From the IMG/VR virus record IMGVR_UViG_3300045988_019087, positions 1-5,933 of that record: a DNA stretch of 5,933 nucleotides; one strand, written 5' to 3'. The notes below the pieces were generated by a model. That model had not been told where the DNA came from. It made no database searches and was given only the letters and a program-made list of their open reading frames with translations. The stretch's first letter is position 1, and the number at the start of each line of letters is the position of its first letter. Source of the stretch: a virus. A program made the position numbers and the translations under genes. This document shows, piece after piece, positions 4,261 through 5,843 of this stretch.

Positions 4261-4289
4261 ATTTTAGCAGGTTTTTTACTGTTTGTCAA
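4261..4289 (-). promoter_or_regulatory. Sigma70-type promoter driving the minus-strand gene block
   Basis: On the minus strand: TTGACA (plus 4284-4289), exactly 17 nt of spacer, TAAAAT (plus 4261-4266). An A-tract upstream (plus 4291-4298 T-run) is UP-element-like. Predicted TSS is about 4254, giving a ~170-nt leader before the peptidase gene. Confidence 0.5.
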
Positions 4290-4381
4290 TGTTTTTTTGG
4301 TTTGAATGGCGCTTTAGCGCCTTGCCGTGCGTAGCGTATGCGGAGCTCGGCCTAATCCATTCATTTTTAGCGCTGTGCGCG

Positions 4382-4556
4382 TTTTCAACACTTTCAACAC
4401 TTTCAACAGGTTTTCAACAAAATATTGCACAATGATTTCCGTCATTTTGACGAACTTTCAACATTTCAACAAATTTTCCACAAGACTTTCAACAGTGTTT
4501 TTCGCTTGTTTTTAACGTTTTATTGTTATAAATTTATATTTTTCAACTTTTCCACA
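4382..4556 (+). repeat. Iteron array: about 10 same-orientation copies of 9-mer YTTTCMACA, including two DnaA-box consensus matches
   Basis: TTTTCAACA 4382-4390; CTTTCAACA 4391-4399 and 4400-4408; TTTTCAACA 4411-4419; CTTTCAACA 4455-4463; TTTCAACA 4464-4471; TTTTCCACA 4474-4482; CTTTCAACA 4486-4494; TTTTCAACT 4540-4548; TTTTCCACA 4548-4556. The two TTTTCCACA copies fit the DnaA box TTWTNCACA exactly; the others differ at one position. Followed by an AT-rich tract at about 4500-4545. Confidence 0.7.
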
Positions 4557-4593
4557 GTCTCTACTACTACGTCTACAACAAGTTAATATAATA

Positions 4594-4637
4594 TACGCGC
4601 GCATGCGTGCGCGCTACGCGCGCGCGTGCGTGCGCAC
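4594..4637. repeat. Alternating purine-pyrimidine (CG/CA/TG) Z-DNA-prone tract: two tandem ~21-nt repeats
   Basis: TACGCGCGCATGCGTGCGCGC (4594-4614) then TACGCGCGCGCGTGCGTGCGCAC (4615-4637). Each unit is fully alternating Pu/Py. Almost pure GC in a genome whose plus strand is otherwise T-rich. Highly self-complementary, so it has cruciform potential. Confidence 0.7.
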
Positions 4638-4640
4638 CGG

Positions 4641-4664
4641 CAGCCCCCTTGCTAGGGGGCGCTG
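4641..4664. repeat. GC-rich hairpin 1 (GCCCCC-ttgcta-GGGGGC, flanking CAG/CTG with a bulge)
   Basis: Perfect 6-bp stem 4643-4648/4655-4660, extendable by 2 bp across a 2-nt bulge. Confidence 0.55.
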
Positions 4665-4670
4665 ACGGAA

Positions 4671-4696
4671 GGGGGTAGGCCGATAGGCCTACCCCC
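4671..4696. repeat. GC-rich hairpin 2: perfect 11-bp stem GGGGGTAGGCC-gata-GGCCTACCCCC
   Basis: Stem 4671-4681/4686-4696 with all 11 pairs Watson-Crick, GATA tetraloop. Followed on the plus strand by TATTTTG. Confidence 0.65.
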
Positions 4697-4703
4697 TATT
4701 TTG

Positions 4704-4722
4704 CTGATAACTGATAACTGAT
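4704..4722 (+). repeat. Tandem heptamer CTGATAA x2.7
   Basis: CTGATAA CTGATAA CTGAT lies between hairpins 2 and 3. The GATA motif also forms the loop of hairpin 2. Confidence 0.45.
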
Positions 4723-4745: not shown

Positions 4746-4772
4746 ATCATCCCCCCTTCTAGGGGGGATGAT
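4746..4772. repeat. GC-rich hairpin 3: perfect 11-bp stem ATCATCCCCCC-ttcta-GGGGGGATGAT
   Basis: Stem 4746-4756/4762-4772, loop 4757-4761. The flanks CTATCAT / ATAGAG extend it imperfectly. Confidence 0.65.
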
Positions 4773-4780
4773 AGAGGGGT

Positions 4781-4813
4781 TAGCCAAGTTCTTACTTGAT
4801 AGGTACTTGGCTA
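4781..4813. repeat. Hairpin 4: 9-bp stem TAGCCAAGT ... ACTTGGCTA with a 15-nt loop
   Basis: Stem 4781-4789/4805-4813. Lies 11 nt from the VP4 stop codon. Confidence 0.5.
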
Positions 4814-4823
4814 GGTGACACCG

Positions 4824-5843
4824 TTAGAGTGTCCCTCTCTTCTTCATTTGCTTTTTGATGACTCTTTCTTTTGTTTCACATTGCTCTGCAAAGTCTGCGT
4901 TTTCATACTTTAGCCGATTTTCTGCTATGGCTGCCGCCTGTCTGTTTTGCTTAATTCTCCACAACCTTTGTGGGTTTTCAGCTTCCATCATTTTTTCATA
5001 ATAACGTGGAATTTGTGCGTGTTTTCCGTTTGTGCATTGGATGTATCCTTGTCTCCATATTTCTGTTTTGTGTTCTTGGTAATAGTGGTCTCCAAGTCCC
5101 GGTTTTAGGCTCATACATGCAAAAGGCTTTGTTTGCCCTAATTCATAGTATACGTTTGCTTTCTGGCCGTCAATTTCGTACATCTTTTTTGTGACGTACC
5201 CTGCAACATATCTATATGTCTCTGGTACTGCTTGTGCTATCTGTATTTGACCCATGCCCCAGATGTCTGTTAGCCATTTACTTGTGAAATATCCGTTGTG
5301 TTGTATCTTGTATAGGTGCTCTAGGTCTGTTGGCTTCCATCCGTATAGTATCATATGATAATGTGGTCTAGCTGTTTGCTCTCCGTATTCTCCTGCTACA
5401 AAATAGCGTAATTTGCCCCTGTAAGCCTTTCTAAGACGTTTTAGGAATTTTTGAACGTCAGTATACAGTAATGTTTGTACGCTTTTAGGCGCTTTCTCTC
5501 CTGGCTTCCAGACGTATTGTACTTTTCTCATGATTTCGCCTGTGTTTATAATCATCCCAGGCACGTGTTCATCATCATACGTTAGAGTGATAAACCACAC
5601 TTCTTCTTTCGGATAGTCTCGTGCTTCTAATTCTATACGTGTTGTCCAGTCCTCTCTCTGTCTTATTCTGCATCCGATGCATTGCCCGCATGGTATTAGC
5701 ATTACATCTTTTCTATACATCAAATCTTCATATTTTAGCTGTTTTCCGCAGACTTGAGAAAAGCGGGCAAGTGAATACACCCGCCCGCTTATTTCTTTGT
5801 TGTCAGGGTTGTACAGCCTTATCAATGGCTTGTAACATCCCAT
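4824..5843 (-). CDS. VP4: Replication initiation protein VP4 (rolling-circle Rep, HUH endonuclease)
   Basis: 339-aa ORF. HUH motif inside ARPHYHMILYG. Catalytic tyrosine motif YVAGYVTKK (YxxxY..K) as in phiX174 gpA and gokushovirus VP4. Cys-rich N-terminal region (CGQCIGC). ATG at 5841-5843 (equivalent to window positions 7-9) preceded by GGAGGAGG, which is itself formed by VP2 Gly codons. TAA stop at 4824-4826. Confidence 0.9.
   Translation of the reverse strand: MGCYKPLIRLYNPDNKEISGRVYSLARFSQVCGKQLKYEDLMYRKDVMLIPCGQCIGCRIRQREDWTTRIELEARDYPKEEVWFITLTYDDEHVPGMIINTGEIMRKVQYVWKPGEKAPKSVQTLLYTDVQKFLKRLRKAYRGKLRYFVAGEYGEQTARPHYHMILYGWKPTDLEHLYKIQHNGYFTSKWLTDIWGMGQIQIAQAVPETYRYVAGYVTKKMYEIDGQKANVYYELGQTKPFACMSLKPGLGDHYYQEHKTEIWRQGYIQCTNGKHAQIPRYYEKMMEAENPQRLWRIKQNRQAAAIAENRLKYENADFAEQCETKERVIKKQMKKRGTL

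Follow-up and report, generated by a model that had tools for sequence, protein, structure and literature searches.

The bacterial basal unwinding system, as described for DnaA-boxes 6 and 7 of incC in Bacillus subtilis, consists of tandem DnaA-boxes followed by DnaA-trios and an AT-rich region (Richardson 2016/2019; Pelliciari 2021; Winterhalter 2023). It is recognized by its tandem boxes and by three or more trios no farther than 16 bp from a box, 3'-GAT-5' being the preferred trio (PMC10201434; PMC8287927). Here we describe a module with this anatomy in a rolling-circle, single-stranded DNA (ssDNA) phage. The stretch analyzed, all 5,933 nucleotides of IMG/VR virus record IMGVR_UViG_3300045988_019087 (hereafter the window), is an essentially complete gut gokushovirus genome with every gene on the minus strand, and the 739-nt non-coding stretch between its VP4 (Rep) and peptidase genes holds an array of DnaA-box-like 9-mers joined to trios and AT-rich DNA (Table 1). 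Judged from its sequence, this module is very probably a DnaA box/trio unwinding element. Microviruses are textbook minimal rolling-circle replicons, thought to need just Rep and a short nick site; an earlier sequence-only reading of the window had remarked that an origin of this kind would be unexpected in a microvirus, and that remark is supported. Full-text literature searches brought up no account of DnaA boxes, of trios or of an oriC-like module in any of the Microviridae. The type of element is known, and what is new is its occurrence in a rolling-circle microvirus, fused to a Rep hairpin.

At the plasmid and phage origins P1 oriR, F, pSC101 and RK2 oriV, DnaA boxes assist an initiator encoded by the element. 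The phage module would resemble these composite origins in recruiting host DnaA beside the element's own Rep, but their Rep is an iteron-binding theta initiator accompanied by one to four DnaA boxes, whereas here an HUH nickase stands beside a full chromosomal-type unwinding system; to our knowledge, no trio arrangement has been described for those elements. E. coli datA and the DnaA-box clusters of B. subtilis titrate or inactivate DnaA and, like the array in the window, gather boxes outside oriC, although they lack an unwinding module. The nearest phage precedent is the proposed injection stop signal of T5-like phages, a conserved array of about eight DnaA boxes in a non-coding region that is reminiscent of oriC (Davison, bioRxiv 10.1101/866236). 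That array differs in belonging to a double-stranded DNA phage, in having boxes of the E. coli consensus and in its proposed role in membrane tethering during injection, and its abstract describes no trios.

The 9-mer YTTTCMACA occurs nine times in the window against 0.27 expected, a count reached by none of 200 dinucleotide shuffles. Eight of the matches lie on the plus strand within 4382-4556, starting at 4382, 4391, 4400, 4411, 4455, 4474, 4486 and 4548; the ninth lies outside the array at 2314, and the minus strand has none. Two degenerate copies, ATTTCAACA (4463-4471) and TTTTCAACT (4540-4548), bring the array to ten boxes, all on the same strand. The sequence-only reading had counted about ten direct copies in one orientation and had proposed a shuffle test of their enrichment, and on both points it was borne out; it was also correct in placing perfect matches to the general consensus TTWTNCACA at 4474-4482 and 4548-4556, both of which read TTTTCCACA. 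Its statement that the remaining copies are one mismatch from that consensus fails for the copies of CTTTCAACA and ATTTCAACA, which have two, and the even array with 8-12 bp spacing that it described is in fact three sub-clusters (B1-B4, B5-B8 and B9-B10 in Table 1), with start-to-start spacings of 9, 9, 11, 44, 8, 11, 12, 54 and 8.

Every sequence feature by which the basal unwinding system is recognized is found within 4382-4595. Besides the two exact consensus matches, all ten boxes are 9-mers of the kind that fill the dnaA-dnaN spacers of Ruminococcus and Oscillospiraceae. The CTA units at 4561-4569 begin 4 nt past the last box (4548-4556), and the (CTA)3 that they form is the sole one in the window and is invariant in 62 distinct modules aligned from relatives. 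The sequence after the trios runs to GTTAATATAATATA (up to 4595), and the DNA there is unstable and AT-rich. Across the 62 modules the box cores and the motif CTACAACAAGTTAATAT are, like the trios, at least 95% conserved, while most of 4495-4540 drifts, as do the other spacers. In a nearest-neighbor profile, the least stable 25-bp duplex of the genome is 4518-4542 (dG -22.2 against a mean of -32.8, standard deviation 2.8), and 4571-4595 (dG -24.5) is three standard deviations less stable than the mean; these two, the least stable such duplexes of the non-coding region, lie on either side of the tandem boxes. The AT tract at about 4500-4545 that had earlier been proposed as the unwinding element is real and holds the first of them, but homology with the layout of host origins places the unwinding side at 4557-4595, and the tract, being the least stable duplex, may contribute. 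The boxes are arranged as at a DnaA-loaded origin, as the sequence-only reading saw, but the trios had been overlooked.

The same anatomy recurs in bacterial chromosomes. When 185,579 species genomes were scanned for TTTCAACA in three tandem units, at least 120 loci were retrieved; among the matches listed, metagenome-assembled genomes (MAGs) of Ruminococcus, Oscillospiraceae and Acutalibacteraceae were in large excess. In R. flavefaciens (L163), the array occupies the 1.48-kb dnaA-dnaN spacer downstream of yidC-rnpA (Pfam) and includes 36 forward boxes; dnaA-dnaN spacers of Ruminococcus and Oscillospiraceae carry 16-36 forward copies of these 9-mers, and tblastn placed dnaA and/or dnaN beside the arrays in about 20 further loci of these groups. 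Seven host spacers together contain 65 copies of TTTTCAACA, 51 of CTTTCAACA, 18 of TTTTCCACA and 13 of GTTTCAACA, about 5:1 in one orientation, and the box repertoire of the phage is that of the host spacers. Because the same 9-mers fill the dnaA-dnaN spacers, YTTTCMACA can be recognized as the Ruminococcus/Oscillospiraceae dialect of the DnaA-box, an outcome that answers the earlier suggestion to compare the array with oriC box variants of candidate hosts. The host is probably a member of Ruminococcus/Oscillospiraceae. The dnaN-side end of the host origins has two abutting boxes, a 4-nt GC spacer (CCCC, GCCC or GTCC; GTCT in the window), CTACTACTACTACTA and AT-rich DNA. In R. flavefaciens oriC the string right before the trios, cTTTTCAACTTTTCCACAg, is identical to the tandem pair of the window, and the trios have the same side and strand in the window as in 20 host origins.

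The likeness to the chromosomal unwinding system thus extends through the tandem boxes, the short GC-containing spacer, at least three 3'-GAT-5' trios on the same side and strand, and the AT-rich DNA beyond; Ruminococcus/Oscillospiraceae origins further share the many upstream boxes in one orientation and the identical dialect. The differences are that the phage module lies in a 5.9-kb rolling-circle ssDNA phage and not beside dnaA/dnaN, that it takes 212 bp against host spacers of 650-1480 bp, that its short AT run is closed off by a GC tract, and that it carries a phage-specific motif in the unwinding region. A bacterial oriC was rejected as the identity of the locus, the window being a gokushovirus genome rather than a chromosome; the module would work like the unwinding core of an oriC, yet it is not one. 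Recent capture of a host origin was also rejected: blastn of the module against 120 bacterial loci gave box-level matches only, and similarity to host origins stops at that level. Prophage or host contamination fared no better, since tblastn of the bacterial loci found no VP1 or VP4 except in L194 (CALBJK010000280.1, 5,840 nt). That contig is a complete free gokushovirus (VP1 52%, VP4 52%) that carries the module, and its binning in an 'uncultured Prevotella sp.' MAG is probably an artefact that assigns no host. Dense TTTCAACA arrays were also seen in two Mesoaciditoga MAGs of the Thermotogota (L101, L115), and in the Ruminococcus MAG loci L123, L130, L136, L150, L152 and L154, where dnaA/dnaN were not found in the 8-kb stretch.

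The module is kept, with boxes unchanged, in more than 100 gut gokushoviruses whose Rep proteins are 36-95% identical. The closest GenBank relatives of the window are pig and human gut Microviridae (~77-83% identity), and L001 (IMGVR_UViG_3300045988_022809) has an identical module. A search of other gokushoviruses for such arrays, which the sequence-only reading had proposed, found them in 48 GenBank gokushoviruses, and full-length modules are present in 64 of 80 close IMG/VR relatives, most of the others ending before or inside the module. The signature GTAGTAGTAG-N3-5-TGTKGAWA retrieved at least 119 IMG/VR stretches, mostly microvirus contigs of 4.3-6.2 kb with the same boxes and with Rep 36-95% and VP1 40-91% identical to those of the window. 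The module is restricted to this one clade: no box cluster was found in 75 diverse control gokushoviruses, Chp2, phiMH2K or SpV4. Two 4.7-kb IMG/VR contigs of a distant microvirus clade (L319 and L323; Rep 29%, VP1 35%) have the same architecture in unrelated sequence, with canonical boxes (TTATCCACA, four or five copies), tandem TTTCCACA boxes and an AT-rich tract, the unwinding end reading TTTCCACATTTCCACA-ATGC-(CTA)5-AT. This suggests that the strategy arose or was acquired on at least two occasions, in the dialects of different hosts. A canonical signature (..TGTGGATAA; TTATCCACA with (CTA)3) gave 15 IMG/VR matches, all on contigs of 8.8-162 kb and none microvirus-sized; these stretches (L222, L228, L283, L293 and L327-L337) could be prophage calls that took in a host oriC, or they could come from large phages or phage-plasmids that carry an oriC-type module.

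The edges of the module are sharp (4381/4382 and 4593/4594). In L002, L009, L030, L032, L051, L052 and MG945447, exactly 4381-4593 is inverted between collinear flanks, with one arm of a short, imperfect, GC-rich inverted repeat on either side, gcgctgtgcgcg (4370-4381) and cgcgcgcatgcg (4596-4607). Inverted copies are ~77-80% identical to the module of the window and same-orientation copies 84-93%, which points to an inversion long ago rather than to flipping that still goes on. In KT264800 the inverted segment is larger. The clade with Rep 36-42% identical, to which KX513864 belongs, has the module in the VP2-VP4 interval, upstream of rep (5026-5224 in L084, KX513864.1, with L212 in the same clade). 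Overall, the boxes occupy the non-coding strand in 60 genomes and the coding strand in 24. By these comparisons the module behaves as a discrete cassette. That it is found in both orientations also argues against a coding repeat, which was rejected on two further grounds: the coding-strand 9-nt unit, TGTTGAAAG, has a stop in one frame, and the array is overlapped only by mechanical open reading frames of 43-62 amino acids. A close relative that seemed to have no module (L008, IMGVR_UViG_3300045988_086966, 8,781 nt) is almost certainly a chimeric assembly, in which tailed-phage Mu-F, portal and terminase genes (4105-6494) are joined directly after the VP4 hairpin.

Adjacent to VP4 in the window is a conserved hairpin, a candidate nick site for VP4, followed by TGACAC at 4816-4821; on the coding strand it reads GTGTCA, stem, loop CCTATCAAGTAAG, return stem. 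The stems covary at four pairs and the loop is conserved. Its sequence matches the loop of control gokushoviruses, (Y)TACTTGAT(G), which is also present in Chp2; the same motif is on the coding strand in 45-61 of the 75 controls, by the core pattern used. The nick-site core of phiX174 is CAACTTG|ATA, within an origin reading CAACTTG|ATATTAATAAC, and the loop in the window, which contains ACTTGATA, matches this core. The hairpin thus has what marks a rolling-circle origin of the gokushovirus type, a conserved ACTTGAT-type loop next to rep and a covarying stem. Classical phiX174-type origins differ in having no DnaA boxes and in the strand of the motif, which lies opposite the genes in the clade of the window.

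The part of the module nearest this hairpin is the AT end and not the boxes, at 24-210 nt. Of 137 genomes, 128 have the AT end turned towards the hairpin, although these represent only about five independent arrangement states and are uncorrected for phylogeny. Between AT end and hairpin there are 24-42 nt in genomes with Rep 36-42% identical, about 40 at 43-49%, about 98 at 50-60% and about 164 at 80% or more, with 185 in the window. In the Rep 36-42% clade, the hairpin precedes the VP4 start codon and the module is flipped and on its other side, with the AT end still towards it. This arrangement is suggestive of a link between the module and the phage origin. CAAG(T) is common to the motif CTACAACAAGTTAATAT and to the hairpin loop as read on the coding strand (TCAAGTAAG).

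The explanation that we favor, as somewhat more likely than not, is a composite origin at which host DnaA opens the duplex for phage replication together with phage VP4. DnaA-ATP of the host would bind the boxes on the double-stranded replicative form, oligomerize from the tandem pair onto the TAG-trio strand (here the coding strand) and melt 4557-4595. The melted end would point at the neighboring hairpin, which in its loop (ACTTG|ATA) has a likeness to the nick site of phiX174. Opening by DnaA would make that site accessible to the HUH nuclease VP4, by exposing or extruding it, or would bring in the host helicase, or do both. For a specific coupling of the module to VP4, we regard the case as evenly balanced. 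Several points weigh against this explanation. The 13-nt AT run past the trios is short in comparison with host origins, and Rep proteins of the phiX type are not known to require DnaA. The AT run and the hairpin are 185 nt apart in the window with very stable GC hairpins between them, and the AT end faces away in nine genomes, eight of them with the inversion seen in L002, so adjacency to the hairpin is not obligatory; the small number of independent arrangements noted above counts on the same side. The strand predicted to be bound at the trios is, depending on the arrangement, either the ACTTGAT strand of the hairpin or its complement, leaving no consistent strand logic. The host assignment is read from the box dialect, and the support as a whole is drawn from sequence.

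The main rival in our ranking is an autonomous, oriC-type (theta) origin, at which DnaA and host helicase loaders would set up forks and the replicative form, without depending on VP4, would replicate and persist in a carrier state as an oriC minichromosome or a plasmid does, with rolling-circle replication reserved for virion DNA. The module holds everything that has been found in the chromosomal unwinding system, its approximately ten boxes resemble a Firmicute origin, it is a self-contained cassette that tolerates inversion and relocation, and the (CTA)n strand automatically provides the TnnT pairs of the DnaD recognition element. A theta origin would leave unexplained, however, the position of the AT end beside the VP4 hairpin in most clades and the invariance of a phage-specific motif, CTACAACAAGTTAATAT, in the unwinding region; furthermore, the 5.9-kb genome shows no function for partition or copy control. 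We consider it unlikely, though a serious contender.

It is rather improbable that the boxes act as a DnaA sink or sensor, titrating host DnaA as datA or DnaA-box clusters do in order to arrest host initiation, or regulating phage transcription by their occupancy, for example at the promoter at 4289-4261. A dense box cluster on a multicopy replicative form would suit such a role, a strong promoter-like site lies 93 nt off the array, and a non-replicative role has been proposed for the eight conserved boxes of T5-like phages. Titration or repression needs boxes only, however, and would leave the invariant trios, the spacer and the AT run unexplained; with the trios and AT run attached, a datA-like cluster was rejected, and titration alone, one of the roles offered by the sequence-only reading, fails on the invariant trios. 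In addition, the geometry of array and promoter is wholly altered in the inverted and relocated variants.

Two further roles offered by that reading fared worse. An ssDNA-stage element that recruits DnaA/DnaD to the incoming single strand and builds a primosome for complementary-strand synthesis has a precedent, since DnaA-dependent primosome assembly on DnaA-box hairpins is known for E. coli plasmids, and the module has trios on one strand and, on the other, TnnT motifs of the kind that DnaD binds as ssDNA. The boxes are direct repeats throughout, however, so no duplex boxes could form in ssDNA, and because the module is found either way round with respect to the genes and the origin hairpin, a given virion strand would carry either version; we find this role very doubtful. 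Least credible of all are high-affinity iterons for VP4 with a chance likeness to DnaA boxes, for although direct repeats near rep, 24-210 nt from a candidate nick hairpin, recall the iterons of CRESS viruses and plasmids, the motif is identical across Rep proteins of 36-95% identity with no co-variation with Rep, the repeats are the same as host oriC boxes in sequence, variant mix and link to trios, the clade with Rep 29% identical has canonical TTATCCACA instead, and such repeats are missing from control gokushoviruses whose Rep and hairpin are homologous, so the boxes follow a host-type dialect and not Rep divergence.

Returning to the composite origin, it may be, as a tentative extension, that a hybrid origin replaced the simple microvirus origin in a large clade of mammalian-gut gokushoviruses, a captured or mimicked chromosomal DnaA unwinding system, written in the dialect of the host, having been fused to an antisense-strand HUH-Rep hairpin, with antisense nicking and packaging, gating by DnaA-ATP and a box dialect that labels the host. 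If so, host DnaA-ATP would gate phage replication, and the dialect would be a culture-free host label, indicating Ruminococcus/Oscillospiraceae here and a host with canonical boxes for the L319 clade. The composite origin, if real, would show an ssDNA phage starting or gating its replication in a new manner, tied to the initiation potential of its host, and would provide a host predictor, readable from DnaA-box dialect, for abundant and uncultured gut gokushoviruses. The module would also offer a compact natural DnaA-box/trio system for the study of unwinding outside chromosomes, and together with the strand-inverted hairpin it raises the testable question of which strand is packaged.

Several observations touch on that strand. 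In the superclade (L001-L088 and L209-L323), the ACTTGAT-type loop is on the non-coding strand only in 105 genomes and on the coding strand only in one, and in the 75 control gokushoviruses (L338-L417) it is coding-only in 59 and non-coding-only in two; Chp2 and L319/L323 have it on the coding strand. If VP4 nicks at the hairpin, superclade phages would displace and package the antisense strand. At four-fold degenerate sites of VP1 (887-2578) and VP4 (4824-5843), the coding strand of the window has 51-57% A and 11-17% T, and the same sites are T-rich in Chp2 and SpV4 (T 51-65%). The strand with the ACTTGAT loop is the T-rich strand, a rule obeyed among the controls by only ~70% of genomes. The idea that module orientation sets the packaged strand was rejected, the four-fold A/T skew being alike in both orientations (+0.59 and +0.65 for Rep; +0.47 and +0.41 for VP1).

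Table 1. Features of the box/trio module, the VP4-adjacent hairpin and the surrounding genes (positions in the window)
Feature	Position	Strand	Remarks
Whole conserved module (boxes, trios and AT run)	4382-4593 (212 bp)	+	64 relatives align over its full length (1-212), in one orientation or the other
Boxes B1-B4	4382-4419	+	TTTTCAACA, CTTTCAACA, CTTTCAACA (abutting, 9-nt period), then TTTTCAACA at 4411
Palindrome CGTCA-TTT-TGACG	4440-4452		In gap between box clusters; read from sequence; mostly at least 80% conserved
Boxes B5-B8	4455-4494	+	CTTTCAACA (4455), ATTTCAACA (4463), TTTTCCACA (4474, perfect general consensus), CTTTCAACA (4486)
AT-rich spacer	4495-4539		Unwinding element of the earlier reading; least stable duplex in genome; sequence poorly conserved
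Tandem boxes B9 and B10	4540-4556	+	TTTTCAAC-TTTTCCACA; origin-proximal pair of the unwinding system
Spacer GTCT (4 nt)	4557-4560	+	Last box to first trio
DnaA-trios CTACTACTAC	4561-4570	+	CTA-CTA-CTA(-C); complement 5'-TAG-3' (= 3'-GAT-5') on minus (coding) strand
Invariant phage-specific motif CTACAACAAGTTAATAT	4573-4589	+	Inside unwinding region; not in host origins
Pure A/T run TTAATATAATATA	4583-4595		13 nt; predicted unwinding element distal to trios
GC-rich alternating tract cgcgcgcatgcgtgcgcgc...	4596-4637		With gcgctgtgcgcg (4370-4381), imperfect inverted repeats flanking module
VP4-adjacent hairpin	4781-4813	+	Conserved; candidate VP4 nick site; stems 4781-4789/4805-4813; loop 4790-4804, tcttACTTGATAggt
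VP4/Rep	5843-4824	-	HUH rolling-circle replication protein; Pfam REP_ORF2-G2P, E 5.9e-17
Sigma-70-like promoter	4261-4289	-	Predicted, strong; TTGACA-17-(TG)TAAAAT, extended -10; consensus scan 11/12 matches
M15 peptidase gene	4084-3683	-	
ORF5-like gene	3205-2966	-	
VP3 scaffold gene	3027-2581	-	
VP1 gene	2578-887	-	
VP2 gene	848-9	-	

The gene content of the window is VP1, VP2, VP3, VP4, VP5 and the M15 peptidase. The predicted promoter lies 93 nt from the array; in the coding direction it comes after the module and before the peptidase and structural genes. A search of Rfam with E values up to 1 gave nothing but a chance miRNA match, and a dif/Xer-like site at 4583-4600, a likeness by eye only, was set aside for the trio/AT-run reading. 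The palindrome between the box clusters may be a site for another factor; other clades also have a palindrome there, TTCGTCAAAATGACGAA in the Rep 36-42% clade and TGCACAAA..TTTGTGCA elsewhere. Between the AT run and the VP4 hairpin, the segment 4640-4775 contains three near-perfect GC-rich hairpins (4641-4662, 4670-4697 with a 12-bp stem, and 4746-4772), and direct repeats of CTGATAACTGATAACTGAT are found at 4703-4721. This segment is variable or missing in other clades and could be a complementary-strand origin or a set of terminators.

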